This document shows positions 11,839 through 59,017 of a stretch of 64,000 nt of DNA, in pieces. The stretch covers positions 512,001-576,000 of the forward strand of contig CAWIIB010000001.1 in assembly GCA_963836075.1 (NCBI GenBank), written 5' to 3'. A model generated the notes under the pieces. That model made no database searches, was not told the origin of the DNA, and saw only the letters and a list, made by a program, of their open reading frames with translations. Origin of the DNA: an uncultured Acidobacteriota bacterium. Its GTDB lineage: Bacteria > Acidobacteriota > JAQAZP01. Both the position numbers and the translations under genes were made by a program. The number at the start of each line of letters is the position of its first letter. The first letter of the stretch is position 1.

Positions 11839-13050
11839 ATGAAGGACAACGTTTTTGCTTCCATTGAAGAAGCCATCCAGGATATCCGCGACGGAAAGAT
11901 GGTCATCGTCTGCGATGACGAAAACCGTGAAAACGAGGGAGATCTGACCCTCGCCGCGGAAAAGGTAACTCCGGAAGCGATCAACTTCATGGTCAAGCAC
12001 GGGCGCGGGCTGGTCTGCCTGCCGATGACCGAGGAGCGCTGTGACGAGCTCGACCTGCCGCTGATGGTCCACGACAACACCAGCCGCTTCGAGACCGCCT
12101 TCTGCGTCTCCATCGAAGCGCGGCACAAGGTCTCCACCGGCATCTCGGCTGCCGACCGCTCGGCCACCGTGCTCACGGCCATCAACCAGGACACCAAACC
12201 CTCCGACCTCGCCCGGCCGGGACACATGTTCCCGCTGCGGGCCAAGTCCGGCGGCGTGCTCCAGCGCACCGGCCAGACCGAGGCCGCGGTGGACCTGGCC
12301 CGCATGGCCGGGCTCTACCCCGCCGGCGTGATCTGCGAGATCATGAACGAGGACGGCACCATGGCCCGGGTGCCCCAGCTCGACGTTTTCGCCCGGGAAC
12401 ACGGGCTGAAGATAATCACCGTGGCCGACCTGATCACCTACCGCCTGCAGCACGAATCGTTCATCCGCAAGGTGGCCGAGCCCAAACTTCCCACGCCGGT
12501 TGGCGACTTCAAGATCATCGCCTACGAGAGCGTGATCGACGGCGTCTACCACGTGGCACTGACCATGGGCGACATCCTTGCCGAAGAGCCGATCCTGGTG
12601 CGGGTGCACTCCCGTTGCCTCACCGGTGACGTCTTCGGCTCGCTGCGCTGCGACTGCGGCGACCAGCTGGAAACCGCCCTGGCCAAGATCGCCAAGGAAA
12701 AGCGCGGGGTCTTCCTCTACATGAACCAGGAGGGCCGCGGCATCGGCCTGCTGAACAAGCTCAAGGCCTACGAACTGCAGGACGGGGGCAAGGACACGGT
12801 GGAGGCCAACGAGTGCCTGGGATTCAAAGCCGACCAGCGGGACTACGGCATCGGCGCCCAGATCCTGCGCAAGCTGGGCCTGGGCAAGATCCGGCTGCTG
12901 ACCAACAACCCCCGGAAGTATATCGGGCTGGCCGGCTATGGCCTGGAGATCGTCGAGCGGGTACCCATCGAGATTCCGCCGTGCAGTGACAACGAAAAGT
13001 ACCTGCGGACCAAGAAAGAAAAGCTCGGTCACCTGCTCAAATCGGTGTAA
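11839..13050 (+). CDS. ribBA: Bifunctional DHBP synthase / GTP cyclohydrolase II
   Basis: [73 protein letters not shown]. Confidence 0.97.
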
Positions 13051-15512: not shown

Positions 15513-16511
15513 GTGCCACAGACAGACCCGCAAATCTCGGTGGTCATCCCGGCCCACAACGCCTCCCATACCATCGTCCGGGTGCTGGAGGCCCTGCTGG
15601 CCAGCGTGGACGTTGCGCCGGAGGTAGTGGTGGTGGACGACGGCTCCACCGACCAAACAGCCGCCCTGGTGGAGCGTTTCCCGGTGACCCTGATCCTCCG
15701 CACCGTCTGCGGCGGTCCCGCGGCAGCCCGCAACCAGGGGGTGGCCGCTGCCGCGGGACACGTCGTGGTTTTCATCGACGCCGACGTGGAGGTGGGCTCC
15801 CACACGCTGGCCCGGATCAAGAGCTACATGGCTGAGCACCAGGAGGTGGACGCCATCTTCGGCTCCTACGACAGGTCCCCGGCGGGCCGGAGATTTATCT
15901 CGCGCTACCGCAACCTGATGCACCACTTTGTCCACCAGCGGGGCAGTGTGGACGCCGGGACCTTCTGGTGCGGCTGCGGCGCGGTGCGCCGGGAGGTCTA
16001 CCTCGAACTGGGCGGCCTGCGGGAGGACTTTGCCCGGCCCTCCATCGAGGACATCGAGTTCGGGGCCCGTTTGGACGCGGCGGGCCACACGATCCACCTG
16101 GTGAAGGAGATCCAGGTCAAGCACCTCAAGCAGTGGTCTCTTTGGCAGATGATCCGCACCGATTTCCGCGACCGCGCCATCCCGTGGACCCTGCTGTTAC
16201 TCAGCGGGAAATGCCGCCGGTGGGACCTCAACCTCCAGCTGCGGCACCGGGCGAGCGCCGCGGCCACCTTTGGCGGGCTGGCCTCGCTGGTGCTGGCCCT
16301 GGCGGTCCACCCGCTCTTCCTGCTGCCGCTCATGGCCTGCGCCCTGGTCTTCCACCTGGTGAACCGGGACCTTCTCCGCTTTTTCGTGCAGAGCGAGGGT
16401 CTGGGCTTCGCCCTGCTGACCCTGCCCTTCCTGCTGCTCTTCTATGTCTATTCCAGCCTGGCCTTCGGCACCGCTCTCCTGCTCCACCTCTTCGGCAAAC
16501 GTCTCGGGTGA
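15513..16511 (+). CDS. GT2 glycosyltransferase with C-terminal TM helices
   Basis: ISVVIPAHNA, VVDDGSTD, GPAAARNQG, FIDAD, SIEDIEFG; GTG start after an aaggag RBS. Confidence 0.88.
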   Translation: MPQTDPQISVVIPAHNASHTIVRVLEALLASVDVAPEVVVVDDGSTDQTAALVERFPVTLILRTVCGGPAAARNQGVAAAAGHVVVFIDADVEVGSHTLARIKSYMAEHQEVDAIFGSYDRSPAGRRFISRYRNLMHHFVHQRGSVDAGTFWCGCGAVRREVYLELGGLREDFARPSIEDIEFGARLDAAGHTIHLVKEIQVKHLKQWSLWQMIRTDFRDRAIPWTLLLLSGKCRRWDLNLQLRHRASAAATFGGLASLVLALAVHPLFLLPLMACALVFHLVNRDLLRFFVQSEGLGFALLTLPFLLLFYVYSSLAFGTALLLHLFGKRLG

Positions 16512-16522
16512 CGGAGGTCCGC

Positions 16523-18811
16523 ATGCCGCTCACATCCCTGCTGCTGGTCCCGCTCTTTTGTCTCCTGCCCGGACTGGCCTTTCTTGTCCTCACCGGCCCC
16601 GCTTCGGCTCACAGTTCCACCGGGAGCCGGGACCGCTACGCCGGTCCGGCCGACTTGCTCTTCCTCTCGGTGGCGCTCAGTGGCTGGATGGCCCAGACCC
16701 TGGCCCTGGCCGGCTGGTTCACCCTGCCGGCACTGGCGCTCACGGTCACCATGCTGAGCCTGGCCGCCCTCTGCGCACACCGGGGGATCCGGTCCGGCTT
16801 TGTGCAGGCTCGCCGGTTGGCGTTGTCCGCTGTCCGGCCCCGGCCGGCGGCACTGGCGGCGGGGCTGTGCGTTCTTCTGCTGGCCGTGTTGCTCTACCAT
16901 CCGCCGGGGGTGGCCCAGCTGGACGGCCACCCCGCTCCGGCCATCAGCAGCCTGGGCATCCACCTGGCCCGCACCGGGGCTCTGCCCCGGCTGGCCCCCG
17001 GGAGCGGCCTGGACGGCGCCGCGGAGGCCATGCGTGCCGCAGCCGGTCCCGGCCTGCTCTTCCCGGCCTGGACCGGCCTGCTGCAGTTGCTGGGCGGCTC
17101 AGCCTGGTCGGCTGCCGCACCCGCCATCTTTGCCGCCCTGTCTCTGGCCGTGATCTTCGGTCTTGGCCGGCACGCCACAGGCAGTGCCTGGTTCGGCGCC
17201 CTCTTGCTGCTGGCCCTGGGCCTCAACTACCCCCAGGCCTGGCTGGCCCGGGTCAGCGTGCCCGAGTCGGCTGCCCAGTTTCTGGTGCTGGCCTCGGCCC
17301 GGTTCTATCTTCGTTCCCGGGACGGGCTCCCAGGAGTGGGGGCCGCGGCGGTCTGTCTGGGCGCCGCCCTGCTCTGCGCTCCCGCCCTGCTCTGGTTCAC
17401 CCCCCCCGCCCTGCTTTTGCTGCTGGCCCTGCACACCGCCGGATCGCCCGCCCGGCGGCGCCGGGCCGTGCTGTTCAGCCTGGGGGTCCTGCCCTTCCTG
17501 GCCCAGGGCTGGCTCCAGGCGCTCCTTCCGGGGATCGGCCATGCCGTGCTGCCGGCGCTGCCCGGCGGTTCGGCCCACTGGATGGTCTGGTACCTGACCC
17601 TGCCCTTTCTGGTGCTGCTGGCCTGCGGTCTGCTGCTGATGCTGGTCCGGCCGGCATGGTCGCTGCGGCTGGTCGGCGACCTCGGGCCGCTGATCCCGCT
17701 GGCCCTGGTCAGCCTGCCCGTCCTGCTCCGCTCCCCGGGCAGCGACGCGGTCCAGCCGTGGGCCGCTCGGCCGTTCACCGTGGCACTGATCCCATCCTCC
17801 CTTTTCGTGGGACTTTTCTTCTTTCACCGCACGTTGCAGTGGCTGCGCCACCCCGCGCTCCGTCTGATCTGGTGCTCCTTCCTCGCCGTTATGCTGGGCC
17901 TCAACCTGGCCAACCTACTGCCCATGGCCACCGGCCGGCCCGGGCAGGGGGCCGTCTCCCTGGTGTGGGAAACCGCCCGGCCCCTGGCCCACCAGGGCCG
18001 GCCGTTCACCGCCGTGGTGGAGGCCGGTCTCGGCAGGCAGGGTCTGCACAGCGCACTGACCGGTCTGCACGGCATCCGCTCCTTCTCCCTTGGCGGCCAC
18101 CACCCGGACCGCGAGCGGTTCCACGCCCTGGTGCGCGAAAATGCCGCGACCGGCCGCCGCACCGCCCTGGTGATCGAAAATGGGCTCTTCACCCCGGATC
18201 CCGCCGGGGTGACCCTGCGCCCGCTGGCCACCGCCGAAGGAACGCTGGTCCAGCTCCCCCCGCTCACCGACCACCTCCCCTCTTCGGTGGTCACCCGGCT
18301 CCGGCGGCTGCAGATCTTCGAGGCGTTGCCCGCCGCCCCCCAACAGCCAACACACCGCGCTCCCCTGACCGTGTGCTGTGGGGTCTACCAGGAGGACTGG
18401 CCCTGGCTGGACAGTGGTTTCCACGGGATATCCAGCGCCGGCGGCCGGCCCCATCGCTGGACCGCGAGCCTGGCCCGGCTCCGGGTGCCGTCCTGGGCTG
18501 CAGCTGTGGAACTGACCCTGGGCGGTTTCCGTCCTCCCGGCGCCCCTGATGCGTTTGTTTCGGCCGGTTTTGCCGGCCACCCCCCCACGGTGAACCGACA
18601 GCTGCCCCGGGTCGGCTTTGTCACGTTCCGCGTCTCCCGTCCTGTTACCGGCCGCGGCTCTCTTTCGTCCTTCCTTGAGCTTCACAGCACCGTTTTTGAC
18701 CCGCAATCCTGGTTCACCGAACTGGACGGAGATCAGCTGGGCCTGCAACTGGCCTCCATGACCTATTTCCCCGCGGACCGGTCCCCCCCGGTTCCCCCTG
18801 CCGTTCAATGA
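16523..18811 (+). CDS. Large polytopic membrane protein, GT-C (PMT/ArnT-like) glycosyltransferase candidate with a periplasmic C-terminal domain
   Basis: More than 10 hydrophobic segments, a LNYPQAWLARVSVPESAAQF loop and a soluble C-terminal GFH..RWT domain; ggagg RBS before ATG 16523. Confidence 0.5.
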   Translation: MPLTSLLLVPLFCLLPGLAFLVLTGPASAHSSTGSRDRYAGPADLLFLSVALSGWMAQTLALAGWFTLPALALTVTMLSLAALCAHRGIRSGFVQARRLALSAVRPRPAALAAGLCVLLLAVLLYHPPGVAQLDGHPAPAISSLGIHLARTGALPRLAPGSGLDGAAEAMRAAAGPGLLFPAWTGLLQLLGGSAWSAAAPAIFAALSLAVIFGLGRHATGSAWFGALLLLALGLNYPQAWLARVSVPESAAQFLVLASARFYLRSRDGLPGVGAAAVCLGAALLCAPALLWFTPPALLLLLALHTAGSPARRRRAVLFSLGVLPFLAQGWLQALLPGIGHAVLPALPGGSAHWMVWYLTLPFLVLLACGLLLMLVRPAWSLRLVGDLGPLIPLALVSLPVLLRSPGSDAVQPWAARPFTVALIPSSLFVGLFFFHRTLQWLRHPALRLIWCSFLAVMLGLNLANLLPMATGRPGQGAVSLVWETARPLAHQGRPFTAVVEAGLGRQGLHSALTGLHGIRSFSLGGHHPDRERFHALVRENAATGRRTALVIENGLFTPDPAGVTLRPLATAEGTLVQLPPLTDHLPSSVVTRLRRLQIFEALPAAPQQPTHRAPLTVCCGVYQEDWPWLDSGFHGISSAGGRPHRWTASLARLRVPSWAAAVELTLGGFRPPGAPDAFVSAGFAGHPPTVNRQLPRVGFVTFRVSRPVTGRGSLSSFLELHSTVFDPQSWFTELDGDQLGLQLASMTYFPADRSPPVPPAVQ

Positions 18812-18851
18812 GAATTTGGCGTGGCGGCCTGTCCTGCCGGGCTTGATTCCA

Positions 18852-18879
18852 TTGACAACCAGTTGGTGGTTGTGATAAT
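18852..18879 (+). promoter_or_regulatory. sigma70-type promoter of the cytochrome operon with an overlapping inverted repeat
   Basis: TTGACA (18852-57), 16 nt, GATAAT (18874-79); ACAACC-N7-GGTTGT (18855-18873) overlaps the -35 box and spacer. Confidence 0.55.
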
Positions 18880-19038
18880 TCTAACCGTGAAAAATAAAAG
18901 GCTTATCGGTTTGAGCCGACCCCCGGGATCAACAACTTGTTGATTCCTCGGCCGGGCCGGCAGGAGCGGACCGAAATTACGGGCGCACCAGGGAGCGTCG
19001 ACCACCTGAATCATAATTCCATCAAGGAGACCCGTGCG

Positions 19039-20334
19039 ATGACCTTCAGAGGATCCAGACTGGGCGGTTTAACGGCTTTTATCCTGCTCGCCGTATTCAT
19101 CACCCTCCTCTCCCAGGTGAACGCCTCGGCCATTCCGGCATTTGCCCGGAAGTACGAGACATCCTGCACCACCTGCCACGTGATCTACCCCAAGCTCAAC
19201 GCCTATGGCGAGGGGTTCCGCAACAGCGGCTACCGCTTCATCGGCAATGACGAGGAGCTGGTGAAACAGGCGGACATCCCCATGGGCGCCGACGCCTGGA
19301 AGCATGTCTTCCCCCACGGTACCTGGCCCGGGGCCCTGCCCCGCTACGTGCCGCTGGCCATCCGCGGAGCATTCGGCGCGGCGTACTGGCCCGACGAGGA
19401 ACTGCGCAAGAGCAGTTTCCAGACTCCCTGGGAAGCGTCGCTCTACTGGGGCACCACCCTGGGCGAGAAGATCTCCACCTACGGCAAGATCAACCTCGAC
19501 GGCGGCAGCCTCGACCGGGCCTTTGTCCGCTTCAACAGCATCTTCGGCAACACCCTTGGCGAGAACTCGTTCAACATCAAGGTGGGCAAGATCGAGACGG
19601 CCATCATCCCCTGGTCCCTGACCCGCTTCATCGGCATCTCGGTGCCGCTGGTCTACGGGGTCAACCGCAGCCAGGGGGACTACACCTACGGCATGCGGCA
19701 GAGCGGCATGGAGGTCGAAGGGATCCTGGGACACCACTTCAAGTACGCCGTCGGCGCCGCCAACGGCAGCAACGGCTTCCGTGACGACAACAACGCCAAG
19801 GACTTTTACGGCCGCCTGGCCTACAAGTTCGGCGGCATCGGCTTCGACGGCTACAGCAAGGCCCTGGAGGAGGGCGGCGAACTGCCCCAGACCGACAACT
19901 GGACCGACACCTCCTTCACCCTCGGTATTTCCGCCTACGACGGGAGGGAGACGATCACCGACGAGGTGGACAACGACGTCACGCGCTATGCCCTGGACGC
20001 CCGGCTGCAGCTGGGCAGCCTCGACCTCTTCGGCATCTACATCGACGAGGAGGACAGCAATCCCTTCCCCGCTTCGACGGATCCCTGGGATTCCTCCACC
20101 TGGTTCGTCCAGGCCGACTACGTGTTCCTGCCGTGGATGGTGGGCTACCTGCGCTACGAGAACCTGGAGGACGCCATCGACCCGCGGGACGCCCCGCTGG
20201 AAGATCTGACGCGGTTCGTGCCCGGCCTGGTGATGGCCATCCGGGCCAACGTCAAGATCACCGTGGAAGCCCAGCTCTACCAGGACGATTTCAACGGGGA
20301 TGTCTACCAGGCGATGCTCGACCTGGCCTTCTGA
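19039..20334 (+). CDS. Cyc2-like outer-membrane monoheme cytochrome c-porin fusion
   Basis: Signal peptide (..VNASA) followed by IPAFARKYETSCTTCHVIYPKLNAYGEGFRNSGY, the PxFARxxxxxCxxCH...PxLNxxGxxFxxxGY N-terminus of Cyc2-type proteins. The remainder has alternating amphipathic beta-strands and a C-terminal Phe (MLDLAF). aaggag RBS. Confidence 0.8.
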   Translation: MTFRGSRLGGLTAFILLAVFITLLSQVNASAIPAFARKYETSCTTCHVIYPKLNAYGEGFRNSGYRFIGNDEELVKQADIPMGADAWKHVFPHGTWPGALPRYVPLAIRGAFGAAYWPDEELRKSSFQTPWEASLYWGTTLGEKISTYGKINLDGGSLDRAFVRFNSIFGNTLGENSFNIKVGKIETAIIPWSLTRFIGISVPLVYGVNRSQGDYTYGMRQSGMEVEGILGHHFKYAVGAANGSNGFRDDNNAKDFYGRLAYKFGGIGFDGYSKALEEGGELPQTDNWTDTSFTLGISAYDGRETITDEVDNDVTRYALDARLQLGSLDLFGIYIDEEDSNPFPASTDPWDSSTWFVQADYVFLPWMVGYLRYENLEDAIDPRDAPLEDLTRFVPGLVMAIRANVKITVEAQLYQDDFNGDVYQAMLDLAF

Positions 20335-20367
20335 TCCGCCGCCGCCGGCCCGCGCCCCGGCGGCGGA
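20335..20367 (+). other. GC-rich intergenic stem-loop without a U-tract
   Basis: tccgccgccg (20335-44) pairs perfectly with cggcggcgga (20358-67). Confidence 0.55.
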
Positions 20368-20400
20368 GATCCCGACTCATTTTCAGCAAGGGGATGATCG

Positions 20401-21030
20401 ATGAGAAGAGGTATGAACAGCCTGCTGAGCAGAACCCTGAAGCTGACCGCCGGCATCCTGCTGCTGGGCGCGCTGCTGGCCGCCGCGCCACCGGCACATG
20501 GCGGCGACCTGGTGGGCACGGTGACCGTCAGGGGCGTGCGCAGCCCGGAAGACGTGGTGATCTACCTGGGCCAGAAGCTCCCGGCGGACCAGCTGACGCT
20601 TCCCGCCGAGAACCCGGTGATGGACCAGCGCAAGCTGATCTTCATCCCCCACGTGATGTGCGTGTTGCGGGGCAGCACGGTGGACTTCCCCAACAACGAC
20701 GAAGTGCCGCACAATGTCTTCTCCCCCAGCCCGGTAAAGAAATTCAACCTCGGCACCTACAAGGTCGGGGTGGTCAAACAGGTGACCTTTGACAAGCCGG
20801 GGCTGGTGCCGCTGCTCTGCACCATCCACCCGGAGATGTCGGCGTTCATTCTCGTGCTGGAGACGCCGCACTACGCCATCACCGGCAAGGACGGCACCTA
20901 CCGCATCGCCGGTATCCCGGCGGGGTCGTACAAGATCAAGACCTGGCACGAAAAGCTGAAACCGGCGGTGGAAAACGTGGAGATCCCCGAGACCGGGGAG
21001 GTGACCCTCGATCTTTCGCTGAGGAAGTGA
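20401..21030 (+). CDS. Periplasmic cupredoxin (type-1 Cu site) with a carboxypeptidase-regulatory-like domain
   Basis: Signal peptide (..PAHG), MDQ...FIPHV, FPNNDEVPHNVFS and LCTIHPEMSAFI supply His, Cys-x2-His-x2-Met ligands; C-terminal GTYRIAGIPAGSYKIKTWHE. Confidence 0.75.
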   Translation: MRRGMNSLLSRTLKLTAGILLLGALLAAAPPAHGGDLVGTVTVRGVRSPEDVVIYLGQKLPADQLTLPAENPVMDQRKLIFIPHVMCVLRGSTVDFPNNDEVPHNVFSPSPVKKFNLGTYKVGVVKQVTFDKPGLVPLLCTIHPEMSAFILVLETPHYAITGKDGTYRIAGIPAGSYKIKTWHEKLKPAVENVEIPETGEVTLDLSLRK

Positions 21031-21037
21031 GGAAGAG

Positions 21038-21604
21038 GTGGACGCGCACGAAGAGCAACGGCCTGAGGAGAACGGGGCGCAGGACGGCGTGCCGGCGCCG
21101 GTCCTCAAGCGGCCCCGCCACCTCTGGGTCACCCGCCGTGATTTCTTTTCCATGGCCGGCTGGAGGCTCTTCTGGGCGGCGATGATCGTCTCGGCGGTGG
21201 GCCTGGTGCGCTTCTTCTTCCCCCGGGCGCTCTACGAGCCCCCCACCACCTTTTCCGCCGGCTCCCCCGACGACTACCAGACGGGGAAGGTGAGCCAGAA
21301 GTATCTCAAGACCGAGCGGACGTTCATCGTCAAGACCGAAGACGGGATCTACGCCCTGCACGGCAAGTGCACCCACCTCGGCTGCACCGTGCTCTGGAGC
21401 GCGGAAGAGCGCAAGTTCAAATGCCCCTGTCACGGCAGCGGCTTCCATGCCAGCGGGATCAACTTCGAGGGGCCGGCCCCCCGGCCGTTGGAACGGTTCA
21501 AGATTTCTCTGGGCCGCGACGGCGCCATCGTCGTCGATCGCGGCCGGATGTTTCGGGAGGAGCGCGGTGAGTGGGAGGAACCCGACGCGCTGCTGAATGT
21601 CTGA
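21038..21604 (+). CDS. Rieske [2Fe-2S] subunit of a Rieske/cytochrome b complex
   Basis: Tat motif TRRDFF plus TM helix, [21 protein letters not shown]. Confidence 0.93.
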
Positions 21605-22412
21605 ACGAACTGGAAGACAGAAGAGCCTCTGGAAGCGGTTCAAGGAGACCGAGCTCTGGAAGTCCGTCTTTCGCCACGGGTACGAGGATACCCGCCGTAA
21701 CCGCTTCCTGCAGATCACCAGCAACCTCTTTCTCCACCTCCACCCGCCAAAGATCCAGCCCCACGCCCTGCGGTTCACCTACACCTGGGGCATGGGCGGA
21801 ATCTCGTTCCTGCTCTTCCTGATTCTCACCGTCACCGGCGTGCTGCTGATGTTCTACTACTTTCCGGACACCGCCCGGGCCTACCAGGACATGAAGGATC
21901 TCAAATACGTGGTCCCCTTCGGCCGCCTGCTGCGCAACATGCACCGCTGGGCGGCCCACGGCATGGTACTCACCGTCTGGTTCCACATGCTGCTGGTCTT
22001 TCTCCACGGCGCCTACCGCGCCCCCCGCCAGTTCAACTGGTGTATCGGCGTGATGCTGCTGGTGATGACCCTGCTGCTCAGCTTCACCGGCTACCTGCTG
22101 CCCTGGGACCAGCTGGCCTTCTGGGCCATCACCGTGGGCACCAACATGGCCACCGCCACGCCTGTGATCGGGGCCGAGGGCCCCTTCTCCATCGCCAGCC
22201 CGGGGAATGACGTACGCTTTGCCCTGCTGGGCGGAAAATCGGTGGGGGCCAACGCCCTGCTCCGCTTCTACGTCTGGCACTGCATCGCCATTCCGCTCAT
22301 CGCCTCGGTGCTGATGGGTCTGCACTTCTGGCGCGTGCGCAAGGACGGCTTCTCCCGGCCGCACCAGCGGAGCTCCCGCTACTCCCGGGAAAAGAAAGGC
22401 AGCGCCCAATGA
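21597..22412 (+). CDS. Cytochrome b6-like N-terminal subunit (split cytochrome b)
   Basis: [55 protein letters not shown]-x13-H (14 residues between the helix D His ligands, b6-type). Confidence 0.93.
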
Positions 22413-23125
22413 GCGATCACCAGGACACCAACGGACGGGCGCCGCTGCGCAAGGTGGAAGCCTGGCCCCACCTGGTCTCGCGGGAGATGCTGGCCGCCCT
22501 GGCGGTGCTGGCCGTGCTCCTCGCCTGGTCCTGGTTCATCGACGCTCCGCTGGAAGAACCGGCGAACCCCAACACCACACCCAATCCGGCCAAGGCGCCC
22601 TGGTATTTCCTCGGCCTGCAGGAGCTGCTGGTCTACTTCGACCCCTGGCTCGCCGGGGTGGTTCTCCCGTGCCTGATCGTGCTGGGGCTGCTGGCCCTGC
22701 CCTACGTGGACAACAACGTCCGGGACACCGGTGTGTACTCTTTCCACCATCGCCGGTATGTGATCTCGGGATTTCTCTTCGGCATGCTGCTCTGGACGGT
22801 ACTGATCATCATCGGGGTCTGGTTCCGCGGTCCGGGCTGGGCCTGGTACTGGCCCTGGGAGGACCAGAGCCTGCACAAACCGCTCTACGAGAAGGCCTGG
22901 AGCTTTCACCCCCTGCTGGGGCTGGCGACCCTCGCCTCCTACTTCGGCATCGGGTTCTACTTGCCCCAGCGAATGAATAAAAAACTGCTCACCGGCCTGG
23001 GCCGCTGGCGCTACTTCATCTCGGTGGGCCTGCTGCTGGTGATGCTGCTGATCCCGATCAAAATCGTCCTCCGGCTGTTGTTCGGAGTGAAATACATCCT
23101 GATAACGCCCTGGTTCAATCTCTGA
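22409..23125 (+). CDS. Subunit IV-like C-terminal cytochrome b subunit
   Basis: [37 protein letters not shown] (Qo loop), LPYVD, FRGPGW. Confidence 0.9.
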
Positions 23126-23154
23126 CCACTGCGCAGGACTGGAGTTTGCTTTCC

Positions 23155-25647
23155 ATGATTCGCCGCTGGTTCTTCATCCTGATGGCCGTGAACCTGCTCT
23201 TTATCGGCCTCTTCTGCTGGGAGGAGTGGCGCCCGGAGTGGAAGGACCATTTCTGGCAGTACCGGGAGCTGAAGCTGGCCGCATTGCAGGGCGAGCTGGA
23301 ACAGGCCATCACCCGCCGGGATGCCGACGAGAACGGTCTGGACGAGCTGCGCCGGGCGCTGACCAGCGAGGAAGCCCGACTGGCGCACCCGGAGCAGAAG
23401 GCGGAGCTGGAGAAGATTACCGAAGCGCTGTCCGAGTCCCAGGAGCGGCTGGAAGACGCGGTGGACAACTACCAGAAGAACTACTCCCGCTACCAGACCC
23501 TGGAAATCCGCTACCACCAGATGAGCGACGAAAACCCGGACAAGGAACTGCGGGCGGCCGACCTGCGCAAGCTGGGCCTGCGGCTGGAGCACATGAAGTC
23601 CGAACAGGAGCGGATCATGGCCGAGGTGGAGGGCCATGACGGCCGGCTGGCCGGTTTCACCGGCGAGCAGCTCCGGCTGAACCGCCAGATCAAGCGTCTG
23701 GAAAGCGAAGTGGAGCAGTGGCAGAACAGCATCGTCAAGCTGGAAGCCCAGCGTCCGGCCATCGAGCAGATCAGCAACAAGGCCCTGGGCCGGGTGGACC
23801 GCTGCGTCACCTGCCATCTGGGTATCGACGATCCGCACTTCAACGACGCCCCTGAGCCGCTCCGCGCCCACCAGCCGAATTCCCTGAGCGACATCGGACT
23901 CTACCACCCGTTCAAGACCTACGGCTGCAGTATCTGCCACGAGGGTCAGGGCTTGGCCACCCGGCTGGCCGAGGCCTTCGGCCAGGAGGCGCACTTCCAC
24001 CAGCCGGTGCTGGGCAGGGACCTCTCCCAGGGCTCCTGCCTGCCCTGTCACCCGGAGCGGATCCCCCTGCCCGGCGTCCCGGCCCTGGACGCCGCCCCGC
24101 TGCTGGAGCGGGGGCGGCTGCTCTTCGCCGACAAGGGCTGCACCGGCTGCCACGAGACCAAACCGTTCAGCCACCTGACCCGCACCGGGCCCAAACTCAA
24201 CTCCCTCGCCCACAAGGTGCAGGGAGACTGGCTCTACCGCTGGCTGCGCAAACCGGACGACTATTTGCCCGGGACGCACATGCCCGACTTCCTGCTCCCG
24301 CCGGAGGAGATCCGGGAGATCACCGACCACCTGCTGCTGACCCTGCGGGAACAGCCACCGCAGCCTGCACCGCCCGCGCCGGGGGATCTGGACCAGGCCT
24401 ATGAAAACGGCAAGGCCCTGTTCCAGGTGGCCCGCTGCATCACCTGCCACGCCATCGAGGGTGTGGGCGGCACCATCGGCCCCGACCTCTACCGCTCGGC
24501 CAGCAAGCTCAACCGGGACTGGCTCTTCTCCTGGCTGGACAACCCGCCGGCCCACGACCCGCAGACCCTGATGCCCCACTTCCGCTTCACCGTTGAGGAA
24601 CGGCTGGACCTGGTGGAATACATCACCCAGGAGTTTATGGACTGGGACCTTCCCGACAGTCCCGACCCGGTGGAGGCAGCGGAACCGCTGGCGGAGAACT
24701 CTCCCCGCGGCGAGGCGCTGGTGCGCCGCTACGGCTGTTCCGGATGCCACGAGATGCCGGGCAGTGTGGACGGCCAGAAGGTGAGCACCGAACTGACCGA
24801 CTACGGGACCAAGACCGTGGACCTGCTCGATTTCGGCTGGGCCTGGGACGTGCCGCGCACCCGCCTCGACTGGACGATGACCAAGCTGCGCACGCCCCGG
24901 GTCTTTCGCGACACCCTGCTGATGCCCGACTACGGCTTTGACGAGGAGCAGATCCTCGCCCTGACCACCGTGCTGCTGGCGCTCAAGGGCTACACCCCGC
25001 CGGCGGACTACATCTACTACGTGAAACCGAAGTGCAGCCTCACCGGCCGGACCGATATACCACCGACCCTCTGGGGGCCGCGGATGGCCAGCACCCCGCC
25101 GGCCACCGCCTTCGACCAGCTGGTGGACGACCTGCGCTGCCGCTCCTGCCACCGCATCGGCACCTGGGGCGGTGACCTGGCCCCCGAGCTGGATCTCACC
25201 GGAAGCCGCTTCGAGGAGGAGTATCTGCGCTTCTTCCTCAAGACCCCGGAGGCCATCCGGCCGCTGCTGGTGGAACGGATGGTGCGGCTGAACCTCACCG
25301 ACCAGGAGGTGGACCAGCTGGTGCAGGGGCTCCAGTTCATGCTCACCGATCAGAACCGCGTACCCCCGGTGTCGCCTGACCCGGCCTGGTCCATCGCCCG
25401 GGGTGAAGAGCTCTACCAGACCCTCGGCTGCACCGGCTGCCACATGACCGGCTCCGAAGGCGGGACCTCGGGCCCCAACATGACCGAGGCCGGCCGCAGG
25501 CTGACTCTGGACTACCTGCACTCCTGGCTGCGCCACCCCCAGACGCTGGTGCCCACGGCCATCGAGCCGGACTACGGGTTGAGCGAGGAGGACGCCGGGC
25601 ACCTGGCCGTCTACATGAAGAGCCTGACCATGGAGGGCGGCGCATGA
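23155..25647 (+). CDS. Membrane-anchored octaheme cytochrome c with a long coiled-coil
   Basis: N-terminal TM helix, a charged heptad-like region of about 170 aa, then eight CxxCH motifs (CVTCH, CSICH, CLPCH, CTGCH, CITCH, CSGCH, CRSCH, CTGCH) with repeated GPxL...WL..P...MP class I cytochrome c modules. Confidence 0.92.
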   Translation: MIRRWFFILMAVNLLFIGLFCWEEWRPEWKDHFWQYRELKLAALQGELEQAITRRDADENGLDELRRALTSEEARLAHPEQKAELEKITEALSESQERLEDAVDNYQKNYSRYQTLEIRYHQMSDENPDKELRAADLRKLGLRLEHMKSEQERIMAEVEGHDGRLAGFTGEQLRLNRQIKRLESEVEQWQNSIVKLEAQRPAIEQISNKALGRVDRCVTCHLGIDDPHFNDAPEPLRAHQPNSLSDIGLYHPFKTYGCSICHEGQGLATRLAEAFGQEAHFHQPVLGRDLSQGSCLPCHPERIPLPGVPALDAAPLLERGRLLFADKGCTGCHETKPFSHLTRTGPKLNSLAHKVQGDWLYRWLRKPDDYLPGTHMPDFLLPPEEIREITDHLLLTLREQPPQPAPPAPGDLDQAYENGKALFQVARCITCHAIEGVGGTIGPDLYRSASKLNRDWLFSWLDNPPAHDPQTLMPHFRFTVEERLDLVEYITQEFMDWDLPDSPDPVEAAEPLAENSPRGEALVRRYGCSGCHEMPGSVDGQKVSTELTDYGTKTVDLLDFGWAWDVPRTRLDWTMTKLRTPRVFRDTLLMPDYGFDEEQILALTTVLLALKGYTPPADYIYYVKPKCSLTGRTDIPPTLWGPRMASTPPATAFDQLVDDLRCRSCHRIGTWGGDLAPELDLTGSRFEEEYLRFFLKTPEAIRPLLVERMVRLNLTDQEVDQLVQGLQFMLTDQNRVPPVSPDPAWSIARGEELYQTLGCTGCHMTGSEGGTSGPNMTEAGRRLTLDYLHSWLRHPQTLVPTAIEPDYGLSEEDAGHLAVYMKSLTMEGGA

Positions 25648-26204
25648 CCGGACGCCTGACAGCCTGGTGTCTCACCGCCCTGCTGCTGGCCGCCCTGCTG
25701 GCCTTCTGCGGCTGCACGGTGCAGGAAGAGACCGCTTCCGCACCGGCCGACGGCACCACGGTGCTCGACGGCACTGAAGCGCTGAACGGCACCGAAATGC
25801 TGTACGGGGACGATATCGAAGTGCTGGCGGTGGGCCCCGAGCTGACCCGCGGCGAGGAGCGGGGGCGGATGATCTTCCTCCACTTCTGCGCCCACTGCCA
25901 CGGCCCCTCGGGCGCCGGGGACGGCCAGAACTCCTACGGCCTGGAAACGGCTCCCCGGGACCTGCTGGCGGTGGAGATGGATGCCCTGAGCGACGAGCAC
26001 CTGAGGAGGGTGATCACCGATGGGGGCGCCGCCAACGGCCTCTCCCCGCTGATGCCGCCCTGGGGCCACACCCTGGAGCCCCACCGGATCAACGACCTGG
26101 TGGCCCTGATCCGTGTCCTGCCCGATCTGGAAGGATTCGAGGACGAGGATGCCGACATCCCCACCCTGGACGATGACGACGAGATGGACGACTTCAGCCT
26201 CTGA
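25644..26204 (+). CDS. Monoheme cytochrome c, probable lipoprotein
   Basis: Hydrophobic leader ending LAFCGC (lipobox-like), CAHCHG..G.GDG, MPPWG, acidic tail. Confidence 0.85.
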   Translation: MTGRLTAWCLTALLLAALLAFCGCTVQEETASAPADGTTVLDGTEALNGTEMLYGDDIEVLAVGPELTRGEERGRMIFLHFCAHCHGPSGAGDGQNSYGLETAPRDLLAVEMDALSDEHLRRVITDGGAANGLSPLMPPWGHTLEPHRINDLVALIRVLPDLEGFEDEDADIPTLDDDDEMDDFSL

Positions 26205-26871
26205 CCGGTTCCACCCCCTGCCCCACCAGTTTTCCACCGGCATGGGCCTTCATGCGCAAGGCCGCATCGGCGGTGACCTTTTCCAGGTCGTCGCGGGCCA
26301 TCTCGGCCGGGGCAAAAAAGACAAAGAGGATATTGCGGGTCTCATCCCGGATACTGGTGCGCAGCGAGTCGGATGATGGGTTGCCAAAGGGCCCCTCCCC
26401 GTCGCTGAGGATCAGCCGCCCCTCCAGGTTCACCCGGCCCTTGTTGATCCCCTGGTAGCCGTCCCCGGGGCCGCCCAGACCGGCGGACAGCTCCCCGTGG
26501 AGCCGGTCGGTGTCGTAGAGCCCCACCGGCAGGGCCGCTTCCAGCGAGCAGATATTGGCCGTGTCCACCACGGTGTTGATGCGGTAGAGCGGCTTGCCGG
26601 TGATCACCCGGCGCAGCAGCGCCTCGGACGAGGGGCGGTACTTGGTGGGATCGATCCCCACCGCCCGGTAGAGGACCCGGGCCGGCCGGTTGCGGGGGCC
26701 CGCCTCGGCCGGAGTGGCGAACTTATGCTGCAAGCGGGTGCAGAGTTCGTCCAGGTCGAACTCCAGGGAATCCGGCGAGCATTGCGGGTCCACACCCTCC
26801 ATGCGGAACCAGCCCAGGCGAATGGTCCCGGCCAGGGACGGCTCGATGCGCAGCGCTGAGGGTTCACTCAT
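26194..26871 (-). CDS. B3/B4 domain protein (PheRS beta editing-domain-like)
   Basis: GIDPTKYRPSSEALLRR, INTVVD..NICSL, PVGLYD.D, DGEGPFGNPSSDS.RT. Confidence 0.88.
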   Translation of the reverse strand: MSEPSALRIEPSLAGTIRLGWFRMEGVDPQCSPDSLEFDLDELCTRLQHKFATPAEAGPRNRPARVLYRAVGIDPTKYRPSSEALLRRVITGKPLYRINTVVDTANICSLEAALPVGLYDTDRLHGELSAGLGGPGDGYQGINKGRVNLEGRLILSDGEGPFGNPSSDSLRTSIRDETRNILFVFFAPAEMARDDLEKVTADAALRMKAHAGGKLVGQGVEPVRG

Positions 26872-54152: not shown

Positions 54153-54581
54153 CTATTTGAACACCAGCGCCTTGGTGGGACAGAACATGGCGCAGGCCGG
54201 CCTGCCGCCACAGATATCGCACTTGGCCACCACCGCGGCCGGTTCGTCAAAAACCATGTTGCCGAAGGGGCAGGCAACCACACAGGACATGCAGCGGACA
54301 CACCGCTCCTCGTCCAGATCGATGGCCCCGGTCTCCTCGTTGCGGATCAGGGCCTCCACCGGGCAGGCCCGCACACAGGCCGCCACTTCGCATTGCAGGC
54401 AGAGCACCGGGACAAAGGTCTCGTTGCCGGTGTCGTGGACCCGGACCCGCGAGCGGCGCAGGCGCCCTCCCCCCTCGGTGTGAGCAAAGGTGCAGGCCAG
54501 TTCGCAGGTCCGGCAGCCGATGCACTTGCCCGGGGTGACATAGAGTCGTTTCAACTGCAGTGCCAGTTCCTTGTCTACCAT
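54153..54581 (-). CDS. Four-[4Fe-4S] ferredoxin-like subunit (CooF/DmsB/WorS-like)
   Basis: CIGCRTCELAC, CLQCEVAACVRACP, CVRCMSCVVACP, KCDICGGRPACAMFCP. Confidence 0.88.
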   Translation of the reverse strand: MVDKELALQLKRLYVTPGKCIGCRTCELACTFAHTEGGGRLRRSRVRVHDTGNETFVPVLCLQCEVAACVRACPVEALIRNEETGAIDLDEERCVRCMSCVVACPFGNMVFDEPAAVVAKCDICGGRPACAMFCPTKALVFK

Positions 54582-55339
54582 TGCACCATCCTGGAAAAGG
54601 TTCGAGCCGTGTCCCTGCTCCGGCAACTGTCGCACTTCTCGAAGTAGTCGATGGTCAAGCCTTCGCGCTCACAGACATACTCGGCCTGGGCGCGGGTGAT
54701 ATGGGAGGTGCCGCACTCGGCGCAGCACATCATCTCGAACGTCTGGCCCCAGATTTTGCGCTGGCGGCCGTCCTCACGGAAGGTGATGGCATCGGTGGGA
54801 CAGATCCGGGCACAGACCGCGCAGCCCACGCAGCTCTCGGCCGGCTGGTCCAGCGGCAGCCCCACCTTCTTGTTCACCCCGCGGCCCACGGTGGAGATGG
54901 CGTGGTGGCCCATCTGGGCGCAGATCCGCGTGCAGAGGCCGCAGAGCATGCAGTTGTAGGGATCGGCGTCCACGGTGAGGGTGGTTTCCTTGAGGCCGCA
55001 GGCGGCGGCGAGGTCCCGGATCACCGGTGACGTGGGGCAGCGGGCCAGCAGCAGGTCAAGCACGTTGCGGCGGCACTCCAGCACCGCCTCGGAATCGGTG
55101 GCCACCACCAGACCCGGCTCGATGGGATAGAGACAGGCGGTGACCAGCCCCTTCCACCCCTTCCAGTCCCGGTGGGTGATCTCCACCATGCAGAGGCGGC
55201 AGGCACCTGACGGCTCCACCGCCTCGTGGTGGCAGAGGGTGGGAATCCGGATGCCGGCCCGCCCGGCGACCTGGAGAACGGTTTCCCCTTCGGCCCCGCT
55301 CACCGCCGTGCCGTTGATCGTAAAACTGATGAGGCCCAT
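54575..55339 (-). CDS. NuoG/HydA N-terminal-like Fe-S subunit without a catalytic domain
   Basis: IPTLCHH..GACRLC...TAC ([2Fe-2S]), CMLCGLCTRIC and CVGCAVCARICP (2x[4Fe-4S]), extra C-terminal CAECG...CDSC; no H-cluster or Mo/W-bisPGD domain. Confidence 0.85.
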   Translation of the reverse strand: MGLISFTINGTAVSGAEGETVLQVAGRAGIRIPTLCHHEAVEPSGACRLCMVEITHRDWKGWKGLVTACLYPIEPGLVVATDSEAVLECRRNVLDLLLARCPTSPVIRDLAAACGLKETTLTVDADPYNCMLCGLCTRICAQMGHHAISTVGRGVNKKVGLPLDQPAESCVGCAVCARICPTDAITFREDGRQRKIWGQTFEMMCCAECGTSHITRAQAEYVCEREGLTIDYFEKCDSCRSRDTARTFSRMVQW

Positions 55340-55374
55340 GACTCTATCCCTCTCTGGCGCCCGGTGCGACCGGG

Positions 55375-57225
55375 TCAATGTACCTCGATGGCTTCATCCG
55401 GACACACGGTGATGCAGGCCCCGCAGCGCGTGCACTTGTCATCGTGAATCTCGTGCCGGGATTTCTTCTTGCCGCTGATGGCGTCGAAGGCGCAGACCTT
55501 GGAGCAGGCCGTGCAGCCGGTGCAGGCGTCGTTGATCGAGTAGGTGATCAGCTCCTTGCAGACGCCCCCGGAGCAGCGGTGGTCCTTGATGTGCGCTTCG
55601 TACTCGTCCCTGAAAAAGGCCAGGGTGCTGTTCACCGGGTTGGCCGCGGATTTGCCGAGGGCGCAGAGCGAGCCGGCGGTGAGCACGGCGGAAAGCCTCT
55701 CGATACTCTGCAGGTCTTCGGGAACGCCCTTGCCGCCGCAGATCCGCTCGAGGATGATCAGCAGCTGCTTGAGCCCCTCGCGGCAGGGGACGCATTTCCC
55801 GCAGGATTCCTCCACCAGGAAATTGACGAAGTAACGGGCCACGTCCACCATGCAGGTGCGGTCGTCCATCACGATCATGCCGCCGGAGCCCATCATCGAC
55901 CCCGCCTCGGTGAGAGTGTCGAAATCCACCGCCAGGTCGAGGGCCGATTGGGGCAGGCAGCCGCCGGAGGGTCCGCCGGTCTGCACCGCCTTGAACGGGC
56001 GGTCGCCGATGATCCCGCCGCCCACACCGAAGATGATGTCGCGCAGGGTCACCCCCATGGGCACTTCCACCAGGCCGGTGTTCTTCACCTTGCCCACCAG
56101 AGAGAAAGCCTTGGTGCCCGGGCTGCCCTTGGTCCCCACGGCGGCAAAGGCTTTGGCGCCCTGGTCAATGATGTAGGGCACGCAGGCGAAGGTCTCCACG
56201 TTGTTCAGCACCGTGGGTTTGTCGTAGAGCCCCTTGACCACCGAGTGGACATACTTGGCCCGCGGTTCGCCCACCTCCCCGGCCACCGATTTCATCAGCG
56301 CCGAGGACTCGCCGCAGACAAAGGCGCCGCCGCCGCGGTTGATCTCGATGGTGAAGTCGAAGCCGCTGCCCAGGATGTCGTCCCCCAGCAGCCCGGCCTC
56401 CCCGGCCTGTTCGATGGCGATGCCCAGCCGCTTGCGGGCCAGCGGGTATTCCTCGCGGACGTAGATGTAGCCCGTGCTCGCGCCCACTGCGTGGGCCCCG
56501 ATGATCATGCCCTCGATCACCGCGTGGGGGTCGCCCTCGCAGATCGAGCGGTCCATGAAAGCCCCGGGGTCGCCCTCGTCGGCGTTGCAGATCACGTAGC
56601 GCGGGTGGTCGTCCACCTTGCGGCAGGTGGCCCACTTGCGTCCGGCGGGAAAACCGCCGCCGCCCCGGCCGCGCAGACCGGACTTGCTCACCACGTCGAT
56701 GACCTTCTCCGGCTTCATGGCCAGCGCCCTGGGCAACGCCTGGTAACCGCCCACCGCCAGGTAGTCGTCCAGCTGCTCCGGGTCGATGCGCCCGATGTTG
56801 CGCAGCACCAGCCGGTGTTGCTTGGCGTAGAAATCGATCAGGTTGTAGGTCTTGATCCGCTCGCCGGTGTCGGGGCTCTTGTAGAGCAGCTTCTCGATCA
56901 CTTCGCCCTTCTGCAGGGTCGATTCCACGATCTTCTTCACGTGGCTCGGCTTGACCTTCTGATAGAAGATCTTTTCCGGCATCAGGATGACCAGCGGGCC
57001 CTGCTCGCAGAAACCGTGGCAACCGGTCTCCTTGATCACCATCCGCACGCCGACCTTCAGCCCGGCGGCTTTGGTCTCGGTGCGGAAGGCCTGGGCCACC
57101 TCGGCACTGCCGCCGGCCAGACAGCCGGTGCCGGCGCAGATCAGGATCTCCCGCTTGACCTTGCCGGCCAGGGCCTGCAGTTTCGTTCTCTGTTTCTCCA
57201 GCGCCCCCGGGCTACTGAACCTCAT
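55375..57225 (-). CDS. NuoF/HydB-like FMN/NAD(H)-binding subunit, long form
   Basis: N-terminal CAGTGC...GCHGFCEQGP, SGLRGRGGGGFP, NADEGDPGAFMDRS, GAFVCGES, TGGPSGG, ESCGKCVPCREG, SLCALG, C-terminal 2x[4Fe-4S]. Confidence 0.93.
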   Translation of the reverse strand: MRFSSPGALEKQRTKLQALAGKVKREILICAGTGCLAGGSAEVAQAFRTETKAAGLKVGVRMVIKETGCHGFCEQGPLVILMPEKIFYQKVKPSHVKKIVESTLQKGEVIEKLLYKSPDTGERIKTYNLIDFYAKQHRLVLRNIGRIDPEQLDDYLAVGGYQALPRALAMKPEKVIDVVSKSGLRGRGGGGFPAGRKWATCRKVDDHPRYVICNADEGDPGAFMDRSICEGDPHAVIEGMIIGAHAVGASTGYIYVREEYPLARKRLGIAIEQAGEAGLLGDDILGSGFDFTIEINRGGGAFVCGESSALMKSVAGEVGEPRAKYVHSVVKGLYDKPTVLNNVETFACVPYIIDQGAKAFAAVGTKGSPGTKAFSLVGKVKNTGLVEVPMGVTLRDIIFGVGGGIIGDRPFKAVQTGGPSGGCLPQSALDLAVDFDTLTEAGSMMGSGGMIVMDDRTCMVDVARYFVNFLVEESCGKCVPCREGLKQLLIILERICGGKGVPEDLQSIERLSAVLTAGSLCALGKSAANPVNSTLAFFRDEYEAHIKDHRCSGGVCKELITYSINDACTGCTACSKVCAFDAISGKKKSRHEIHDDKCTRCGACITVCPDEAIEVH

Positions 57226-57237
57226 ATCCTCACCTGC

Positions 57238-57699: not shown

Positions 57700-57709
57700 T
57701 CCTCCCCTT

Positions 57710-58243: not shown

Positions 58244-58248
58244 TGTCC

Positions 58249-59013: not shown

Positions 59014-59017
59014 GGTC

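Follow-up and report, generated by a model that had tools for sequence, protein, structure and literature searches.

Homologs of Cyc2, a fused cytochrome-porin, are reported to be in wide use as metagenomic markers of iron oxidation, also for phyla without a known iron oxidiser. What such a protein does in these hosts, and with which partners, is the question raised by a stretch of DNA from an uncultured Acidobacteriota bacterium (assembly GCA_963836075.1, contig CAWIIB010000001.1, positions 512,001 to 576,000; the whole stretch of 64,000 nucleotides is called the window). At positions 19039-26204 of the window, seven co-oriented plus-strand open reading frames (ORFs), g1 to g7, were found in the ORF listing. 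They encode a Cyc2-like protein, a blue copper protein, a Rieske/cytochrome b complex and two c-type cytochromes. Their sequences suggest that the products can form a redox chain spanning the cell envelope, between the quinone pool and a heme in an outer-membrane pore. The parts, their order and the conservation of this order in other genomes are established by the results below.

The seven genes and their products

The genes of the operon, with the basis of each assignment, are as follows (aa, amino acids).

19039..20334, plus strand: g1, Cyc2-family fused monoheme cytochrome-porin, 431 aa (motifs and predicted fold)
20401..21030, plus strand: g2, blue (type-1) copper protein of the periplasm, ending in a CarboxypepD_reg-like beta-sandwich, 209 aa (Pfam, conserved ligands, fold)
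21038..21604, plus strand: g3, Rieske 2Fe-2S protein with one hydrophobic anchor, 188 aa (Pfam Rieske, 45 bits)
21597..22412, plus strand: g4, cytochrome b6-type subunit, 271 aa (Pfam Cytochrome_B, 130.5 bits)
22409..23125, plus strand: g5, subunit IV/PetD-like membrane protein, 238 aa (Pfam Cytochrom_B_C, 28.6 bits)
23146..25647, plus strand: g6, membrane-anchored octaheme c-type cytochrome, 833 aa (Pfam, NCBIfam, motif count)
25644..26204, plus strand: g7, monoheme class-I c-type cytochrome, 186 aa (Pfam Cytochrome_CBB3, 38 bits)

An earlier, sequence-only reading of this DNA had described seven co-oriented genes with tight junctions behind one promoter-like site, and the ORF listing and a promoter scan agreed with it throughout. 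Gaps of 66, 7 and 20 nucleotides (nt) separate g1 from g2, g2 from g3 and g5 from g6, respectively; g3 and g4 overlap by 8 nt, and g4/g5 and g6/g7 are joined by ATGA overlaps of 4 nt each. The motif count likewise returned the ten CxxCH motifs of that reading, with one in g1, eight in g6 and one in g7.

Cyc2 proteins are defined in Keffer et al. (2021) by a single CXXCH motif, the sequence AXPXFAR[Q/K][T/Y] upstream of it, PXL four residues after it, a porin domain and a length of at least 365 aa; the upstream motif is there called unique to Cyc2. The g1 ORF is open from 18937, and the 431-aa form starting at ATG 19039 is identical with database protein P0001. It begins with a hydrophobic signal-like N-terminus, which is followed by AIPAFARKY-ETS-CTTCH-VIY-PKL and a predicted 16-strand beta-barrel. 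For comparison we used the best 80 loci from a scan of one genome per species, in which g1 had at least 559 relatives. CTTCH, at residue 43 of 431, is the only CXXCH motif in g1, and exactly one is present in each of the 80 homologs. AIPAFARKY occupies residues 31-39; the strict form PXFAR[Q/K][T/Y] was found in 62 of the 80 and the looser PxF[AS]R[KR]Y in 79. PKL is at residues 51-53; of the 62 strict matches, 45 have PXL, and PKR occurs in others. The spacer from Y39 to C43 consists of three residues (ETS) in the window and in all 62 strict matches, where Keffer et al. (2021) quote 'five'.

An AlphaFold2 model of g1 based on 106 homologs (predicted local distance difference test score, pLDDT, 86; predicted template-modelling score, pTM, 0.85) has 16 strands, which, with the length of 431 aa, agrees with the remaining part of the published definition. 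Its best Foldseek matches in the PDB are 16-strand porins, and the top seven include OprP (2o4v, template-modelling scores 0.56/0.58) and OprO (4rjw), both of which Keffer et al. (2021) name as structural relatives of Cyc2. No Pfam or NCBIfam family matched g1, and no PDB sequence matched at E up to 10. In the ESM Atlas only unnamed clusters were found, save one with Porin_O_P in 12% of its members. A word-indexed search gave 686 proteins at E up to 1e-3, and the names among the 120 listed were all 'hypothetical protein'; an exhaustive profile search gave 4706 representatives at E up to 1e-3, 2314 at 1e-10 and 574 at 1e-30. On the published motif criterion and the predicted fold g1 is assigned as Cyc2-like, and the beta-barrel with an N-terminal heme motif read earlier from the sequence is upheld.

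Across 106 aligned g1 homologs, no Met or His beyond the CXXCH His is conserved even at 40%. Judging from the alignment, this subfamily may lack a sixth heme ligand or have an unusual one, in contrast to Ghiorsea Cyc2, which is reported to be low-spin with two axial ligands. Residues Y39, K52 and K88, near the heme, are invariant or near-invariant and thus candidates.

The second protein, g2, matched the Pfam families Copper-bind, at 19.6 bits (below the cut-off of 21.2), and CarboxypepD_reg, at 31.7 bits. Among 83 sequences, H104 is conserved in 93%, and C140, H143 and M146 in 100%. The AlphaFold2 model (pLDDT 94) was matched by Foldseek to amicyanin, plastocyanin and pseudoazurin; the ferrous-uptake cupredoxin FtrB of Brucella (8vuk) appeared at rank 40. 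With a modelled cupredoxin fold and the His/Cys/His/Met ligand set, g2 is classed as a type-1 copper protein, as it had been in the sequence-only reading. Prediction of a g1+g2 complex gave a score of 0.01, which carries no weight either way.

Both boxes of a Rieske protein (CxHxGC and CxCHxS) are present in g3, as CTHLGC at residue 111 and CPCHGS at 129, the latter followed by x-F. The twin-arginine sequence TRRDFF at residues 32-37 is the basis for regarding g3 as a putative substrate of the twin-arginine (Tat) pathway. Its best solved relative was 9rk3 (E 1.4e-43, 152 bits, residues 72-188), and the b6f Rieske proteins matched at 1e-15 to 1e-16. Entries 9rk3 and 9rk4 are two Rieske structures from Kuenenia stuttgartiensis, and the potentials given for the two Kuenenia proteins are +303 and +335 mV (bioRxiv 10.1101/2025.06.25.661457). 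In the alignment with 9rk3 the Ser-x-Phe box agrees with Kustd1480 as described in the same preprint.

The heme-ligand histidines of g4 are His116/His130 (Hx13H) and His228/His243 (Hx14H), and there is no Cys ahead of residue 149. Its best solved relatives were cytochrome b6 chains, at about 133 bits, and its best NCBIfam model was ExtP, at 269.1 bits against a cut-off of 290. For g5, which carries the Qo motif APWY at residue 63, the best NCBIfam model was ExtQ, at 56.5 bits against a cut-off of 150. An extra C-terminal hydrophobic segment in g5 (197-233) extends beyond the 160-position model TIGR01156, which is weakly matched. The b6 and subunit IV parts are thus separate genes, with the four histidines spaced 13/14 as in a split cytochrome b. 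Pfam, solved relatives and motifs concur with the earlier reading of a split cytochrome b6 and subunit IV accompanied by a Rieske protein, and g3-g5 are assigned on their sequences to a Rieske/cytochrome b complex of the split b6 type, whose APWY motif is rare.

In g6 an N-terminal hydrophobic helix is followed by a helical or coiled region of about 170 aa, four closely spaced CxxCH motifs (220-336) and four class-I cytochrome c domains (431, 531, 665 and 762). Weak SMC/Rad50-like matches to NCBIfam models at residues 40-229 agree with a coiled coil. Part of the protein had ExtS as its best NCBIfam model, at 77.3 bits against a cut-off of 100, and the match to an MtrC/MtrF domain was weak (24 bits, cut-off 30). 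The smaller cytochrome, g7, contains CAHCH at residue 82 and has an acidic C-terminal tail; the lipobox-like AFCGC after its N-terminal hydrophobic segment is the ground on which it had been read, and is kept here, as a putative lipoprotein. No oxidase domain was found in g1-g7 with Pfam or NCBIfam, as had been noted before, and the two heme-copper oxidase (COX1-family) hits in the genome are on contig C9, the window being on contig C1.

Two features bear on expression of the operon.

18852..18879, plus strand: sigma-70-type promoter-like site, TTGACA-16-GATAAT with an upstream TG before the -10 element (consensus match only)
20333..20371, plus strand: G+C-rich stem-loop in the g1/g2 spacer, 10-bp GC inner stem, -35.6 kcal/mol, z -1.5

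The promoter-like site agrees with the consensus at 11 of 12 positions and is the sole one in 18500-26600, where 0.8 would be expected by chance. It lies 41 nt past the end of the upstream ORF (18811) and 160 nt ahead of the g1 ATG at 19039, which is itself preceded at 8 nt by AAGGAG. The scan of 18500-26600 revealed no terminator-like site on the plus strand and no promoter-like site between g1 and g2. An Rfam scan of the same interval at E up to 1 returned nothing, leaving the 160-nt leader without a known riboswitch.

The sequence-only reading had pointed to a hairpin after g1 as a place where transcription might end. The stem-loop itself is real, and its stem is kept in both relatives from the same genus (L001:11281-11376 and L002:9564-9660), with a varying loop; the transcriptional break was not borne out by any terminator-like or g1/g2 promoter-like site. 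A short T run follows the hairpin in the window and is not kept in the two relatives. As a terminator the hairpin was rejected, since it fails the terminator rule and has no conserved U tract. Its role may be in attenuation, or in mRNA processing or stability. No RNA was among the sequencing runs listed as carrying this DNA; the DNA runs so listed came from sediment, salt-marsh and soil metagenomes, the largest share being 0.47.

Conservation of the gene order

The content of the 80 loci was determined by tblastn with the seven window proteins. A g2 homolog adjoins g1 in 76 of them, and in the other four the contig continues for 365 nt or less after g1; the pairing was therefore found in 76/76 loci that extend far enough. 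Rieske and cytochrome b genes are present downstream in 27 of the 80 loci (20 of the 50 with at least 6 kb downstream), and homologs of g5, g6 and g7 usually come next, in the same order. The labels of these 27 Rieske-linked loci include 18 Acidobacteriota (among them Thermoanaerobaculia and Vicinamibacteria), 3 Bacteroidota, 2 Ignavibacteria, 1 Gemmatimonas and 1 Neomarinimicrobiota. APWY was present in all 25 subunit IV homologs of the related loci. Rieske box II has S-F in 22 of 27 and S-Y in 4. Eight CxxCH motifs were counted in the g6 homologs of 21 of 26 loci, and three of the other five clearly reach the contig end.

The linkage, whose presence in other genomes the sequence-only reading had named as a test, is conserved in related and in unrelated genomes. 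Because the gene order is kept there, the arrangement exceeds chance. We hold it highly probable that the parts are correctly identified and that their conserved linkage is real.

Most Rieske-linked loci contain one gene more than the window.

L074:11993-13822, L079:11943-13886, L078:5418-7247 and 16 other loci: NAD(P)-oxidoreductase-like gene (domain matches)

This gene encodes about 610-650 aa and separates g2 from the Rieske gene in 19 of the 27 loci. Its GltD/NfnB-like product combines Pyr_redox_2, Fer4_20 and 4Fe-4S dicluster (Fer4_7) domains. It is absent from the window, from the two genus relatives (g1 83-84% identical) and from three further loci, and two loci have a different insert in this place. 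In L029 (Ignavibacteria) a 359-aa ORF at 11969-13048, unrelated to the NAD(P)-oxidoreductase-like gene, stands between the cupredoxin and Rieske genes. The cupredoxin-Rieske gap of L042 is of similar length (1850 nt) and has no GltD-like gene.

Where the complex is missing, g1-g2 is found beside PAS histidine kinases and response regulators, or beside other redox proteins. Eight loci have a CuA-like protein, a NapH/MauN-like polyferredoxin and a CoxB-like domain fused to cytochrome c.

L035:12435-17070, also L007, L010, L026, L036, L048 and L062: CuA/NapH-like neighbourhood of g1-g2 (family matches)

To this set L035 adds a CueO-like multicopper oxidase. A 329-aa cytochrome c follows g1-g2 in eight loci. 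A 483-aa Fer4_5 neighbour had been considered as CcoG/FixG, an assignment that was dropped when NCBIfam gave weak NapH/MauN matches. No metal transporter, P19 or FTR1-type gene was found among the recurrent neighbour families of g1-g2.

On a g1 tree of 81 rows (quick IQ-TREE run, SH-aLRT support only) the Rieske-linked loci are scattered, and the small clade of the window is on a long branch. The neighbour sets require at least 20 changes on this tree. Judged from these comparisons, g1-g2 is thus a stable unit which has repeatedly been joined to the Rieske/b6 complex or separated from it by loss.

The presence of g6 was also followed through the window's phylum, in a search of 41 genomes. Five of them encode a full-length g6-like protein (E below 1e-90), and in four of the five it is encoded on the same contig as g1. 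One genome has two cyc2-like copies, on contigs G011:C59 and G011:C157 (L095 and L107), with a g6-like octaheme gene a few kb from each.

Likeness to known systems

Each part of the operon comes from a known, or known but uncharacterised, family, as judged by sequence, and we compared the whole with the systems to which the parts point. With the Cyc2 proteins (Acidithiobacillus ferrooxidans Cyc2, Mariprofundus Cyc2PV-1, Leptospirillum Cyt572 and Ghiorsea Cyc2) g1 shares the signal-like N-terminus, the single CXXCH, the flanking motifs, a length of about 430 aa and an OprP/OprO-like 16-strand barrel. The hosts of the g1 operon are, however, not known iron oxidisers. In the literature searched we found no description of Cyc2 partners outside Proteobacteria.

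A precedent for a Cyc2 pathway to the quinone pool is that of A. ferrooxidans, which is described as having outer-membrane Cyc2 with cupredoxins, and a bc-type complex. In the rus operon cyc2 is reported to be transcribed with cyc1, cup, the aa3 oxidase genes and rus, with bc1 in a separate pet operon. By contrast, g1-g7 includes no oxidase gene and has a b6-type complex inside the operon. This complex consists of a split b6 and subunit IV with an octaheme cytochrome, whereas petI encodes a bc1 complex with cytochrome c1.

The sequence-only reading had inferred a genetic joining of an outer-membrane entry point to a Rieske/cytochrome b complex and knew of no characterised example of the architecture. 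As a correction to it, the ext cluster of Geobacter sulfurreducens already combines a porin-like outer-membrane protein with a Rieske/cytochrome b module. The published accounts of extHIJKLMNOPQS place in one cluster ExtI (phosphate-porin-like), ExtO (Rieske), ExtP (cytochrome b), ExtQ (membrane protein), ExtS (lipoprotein cytochrome c) and multiheme cytochromes. Although g4, g5 and g6 are nearest to ExtP, ExtQ and ExtS, all three scores are below the cut-offs, and the proteins are therefore not equivalogs. ExtI is described as a porin without heme, unlike g1, which has a heme motif. The ext cluster further includes a rhodanese-like protein, a selenocysteine cytochrome and 10- and 12-heme cytochromes; the accounts list no cupredoxin in it.

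The inner-membrane part resembles the Kuenenia complexes Kustd1480-1485 and Kuste4569-4574, in which b6-like and subunit-IV-like subunits are described together with a high-potential Rieske protein and a hexa- or octaheme cytochrome replacing cytochrome f. The octaheme g6, with its N-terminal anchor, corresponds to the multiheme subunit; for g4-g6 the likeness is to the published description. According to the published description, Kustd1485 is a large protein whose long helices wrap around the complex, and the helical stretch of about 170 aa in g6 resembles this. The reported NAD(P) oxidoreductase subunit of Kuenenia is matched in domain content by the gene of the 19 related loci and is absent in the window, where g2 and g3 are 7 nt apart. 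The systems differ further: g4 has no early Cys for heme cN, and the Kuenenia complexes belong to the anammoxosome membrane, with neither a copper partner nor one in the outer membrane.

Cytochromes b with APWY or GPWY are tied by Kao and Hunte (2014) to mid-to-high-potential Rieske proteins. In their account the APWY clade occurs in several phyla with no member characterised; the membership as quoted does not include Acidobacteria, Ignavibacteria or Bacteroidetes, nor does the account as quoted mention an outer-membrane partner. The window g5 and its 25 homologs all carry the clade's motif. A comparison can finally be made with MtrCAB, MtoAB/PioAB and Geobacter Pcc, whose overall task is the same, namely to connect the quinone pool with the far side of the outer membrane for electron transfer in either direction. 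These conduits are described as a 26-strand barrel around a decaheme wire, whereas here one heme in a 16-strand pore and one copper centre are proposed.

The arrangement thus resembles rus and petI minus the oxidase, ext plus a heme pore and copper, and the Kuenenia complex plus an outer-membrane outlet, and it matches none of them. A cluster of cyc2-like, cupredoxin, Rieske/b6 and octaheme cytochrome genes was not described in the literature searched, which excluded subscription journals and supplements (proteins of this kind may be listed in the supplementary trees and tables of Keffer 2021, McAllister 2020 and Garber 2020). That the sequence-only reading knew of no characterised example agrees, for the full wiring, with the literature searched; the inner-membrane part is of a known kind, as it belongs to the uncharacterised APWY clade and is close to the Kustd1480-type complex and to ExtOPQS.

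Direction of electron flow and genomic setting

How the products act together, on which substrate and in which direction is what we infer. The complex of g3-g5, b6-type and of the APWY or Kuenenia Kustd1480 kind, would exchange electrons with the quinone pool together with its own cytochromes g6 and g7, and g2 would be the dedicated periplasmic partner of g1 in the outer membrane. A small dissolved redox species would be reduced or oxidised at the single N-terminal heme of g1. Keffer et al. (2021) argue for a dissolved partner from a monoheme in a 16-strand porin; the same features of g1 point to a dissolved partner here, and not to minerals, electrodes or partner cells. The extracellular partner proposed in the sequence-only reading is accordingly narrowed to dissolved species, and the minerals and partner cells that it also named are disfavoured.

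We tentatively favour an outward flow of electrons, from quinol to a soluble extracellular acceptor, over an inward one, while giving it somewhat less than an even chance. Electrons would pass from quinol to the Rieske/b6 complex, then to the c hemes, the copper centre, the porin heme and a soluble extracellular oxidant. The terminal oxidant could be Fe(III) or Mn(III) in chelated form, with an oxyanion as a further possibility, and a Q cycle would conserve energy. In the 19 loci with the NAD(P)-oxidoreductase-like subunit, the outlet would act as the high-potential arm in a quinol bifurcation such as has been suggested for anammox complexes.

Several lines of evidence point in this direction. 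Rieske/b-type complexes normally work as quinol oxidisers. As the nearest solved relative of g3 is at +303 or +335 mV, the periplasmic chain would lie far above a quinol donor. Quinol bifurcation with a high-potential sink has been proposed for the anammox Rieske/b complexes (bioRxiv 10.1101/2025.06.25.661457), and by analogy the NAD(P)-oxidoreductase-like subunit would be energetically sensible only with quinol oxidation and such a sink. The NapH/MauN-like gene that follows g1-g2 in eight loci belongs to a family annotated as quinol dehydrogenase subunit. The closest relative of g4, ExtP, comes from a cluster with a phosphate-porin-like outer-membrane protein, and this cluster, which is tied to extracellular reduction, is reported to be more abundant on Fe(III).

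The host genome (6.23 Mb in 10 contigs, 94.7% complete) has one copy of g1. Neither the RuBisCO large subunit nor CdhC was found in this 94.7%-complete genome, and hence reverse electron flow would have no evident purpose in CO2 fixation. Elsewhere the genome encodes a second, unsplit cytochrome b, and cytochrome bd on another contig than the window. There are several molybdoenzymes, with no NarG above the cut-off. From its gene content the host looks like a facultative heterotroph, although absence of a gene from an incomplete genome is no proof.

Other observations weigh against outward flow through such a chain. No extracellular acceptor known to us combines the solubility needed at a 16-strand pore with a sufficiently high potential. 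The absence of carbon fixation rests on two families, the search for ATP-citrate lyase having been uninformative because its control matched no genome. The transcripts could be divided at the hairpin that follows g1. Of five genomes with g1-g2 beside sensor kinases, four have no g6-like protein, which indicates that g1-g2 is independent of the complex; conversely G032 has a g6-like protein and no g1 match, and here the complex is independent of g1-g2. All Cyc2-family proteins for which assays are reported work as Fe(II) oxidases, with none described as reducing an acceptor, and Kao and Hunte (2014) proposed reverse operation for APWY complexes.

The last two points would equally be expected if electrons moved inward, which we consider a real possibility, though a less likely one. 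Dissolved Fe(II) would be oxidised at the g1 heme, and by way of the cupredoxin and the c hemes the electrons would reach the Rieske/b6 complex, where a reverse Q cycle driven by the proton-motive force would reduce quinone. Such an operon would merge the Acidithiobacillus cyc2/rusticyanin entry and the 'uphill' branch of petI. It would have a precedent in the Acidithiobacillus model, which is described with an uphill route from Cyc2 through a cupredoxin to bc1, and the reverse operation proposed by Kao and Hunte (2014) has its input on the high-potential side. The reach of a monoheme porin to a dissolved ion (Keffer et al. 2021) suits Fe(II) as well, and a heme-copper oxidase and cytochrome bd are at hand on another contig. 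Most of the electrons may branch off at the cupredoxin or the c hemes towards an oxidase whose genes are not in the operon. It would nevertheless be odd for an operon to pair an iron oxidase with a minor uphill branch and not with the oxidase. Moreover, a Rieske protein near +300 mV implies a steep climb to quinone, the NAD(P)-oxidoreductase-like subunit of 19 of 27 loci would have no sensible role, and without RuBisCO or CdhC the usual reason for uphill flow is missing.

Two further explanations do without a dedicated respiratory path. It is improbable, in our estimate, that g1-g2 is a self-standing pair, concerned with copper or iron handling or detoxification or with redox sensing, to which the Rieske/b6 complex is one neighbour of several. 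In most loci g1-g2 does occur without the complex, beside kinases, CuA-like or NapH-like proteins, the multicopper oxidase of L035 or the 329-aa cytochrome c; the sensor-kinase-type genomes without a g6-like protein fit this, as does FtrB at rank 40 among the fold matches of g2. However, the fully conserved His/Cys/His/Met set of g2 is a classical electron-transfer site, the Rieske/b6 and NapH-like neighbour sets are quinone-reactive and a third set is a c-type cytochrome, and metal transporter, P19 and FTR1-type genes were not among the recurrent neighbours. The overlapping junctions of g2-g7 in the window, moreover, imply co-translation. We consider it very improbable that the genes are adjacent without being coupled, the g1 transcript ending at the hairpin, g2-g7 being expressed apart and the order reflecting ancestry or mobility. 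A stable stem-loop conserved in the genus 3' of g1 would suit such an ending, and the 20 or more changes of neighbour set on the g1 tree indicate that the module is often recombined. Yet the stem has no conserved U tract, the scan found neither a g1/g2 promoter-like site nor a plus-strand terminator-like site, g1-g2 is constant in all 76 sufficiently long loci, and the same downstream complex recurs across phyla.

If outward flow is accepted, a wider proposal can be made, which we regard as unlikely but worth stating. A conduit of copper and a single heme, distinct from the multiheme Mtr and Pcc wires, would allow Acidobacteriota, Ignavibacteriota, Bacteroidota and others to respire dissolved extracellular oxidants by means of a Q-cycle complex dedicated to this. 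Where the NAD(P) oxidoreductase is present, as in the commoner version, the oxidant would be the high-potential arm of a quinol-based bifurcation yielding NAD(P)H. A conduit of this type would provide a testable role for anammox-type Rieske/b complexes outside anammox bacteria.

The operon is thus a candidate for moving electrons between the respiratory chain and dissolved extracellular metals. With its relatives it ties together genetically two puzzles, namely Cyc2 homologs outside iron oxidisers and the purpose of the APWY/anammox-type complexes, to which the accounts consulted assign no physiological role. One Cyc2 subfamily gains a constant cupredoxin partner and a direct link to the quinone pool. 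The loci also form a natural series for comparison: some have the NAD(P) oxidoreductase and others do not, and the partners may be Rieske/b6, NapH-like or a plain cytochrome c. Should electrons flow outward, iron oxidation would be wrongly read from Cyc2 hits in such genomes; should they flow inward, apparent heterotrophs would possess a compact module for reverse electron flow. Either direction, if true, would alter the reading of sediment and groundwater metagenomes.

Elsewhere in the window, at 54575-60148 on the minus strand, NuoE-like, NuoF-like and 2Fe-2S/4Fe-4S proteins adjoin the alpha and beta subunits of a 2-oxoacid:ferredoxin oxidoreductase; by sequence this set is a ferredoxin/NADH-linked module typical of anaerobic metabolism. 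The genes flanking g1-g7 on both sides are unrelated to the operon. The 3' flank consists of a convergent B3/4-domain gene, followed by LolA and a hydrolase with FG-GAP repeats. Upstream, a 947-aa ORF (15968-18811, plus strand) gave no Pfam match at E up to 1e-5, and its region has a very high G+C content (0.71) and a strong AT skew.

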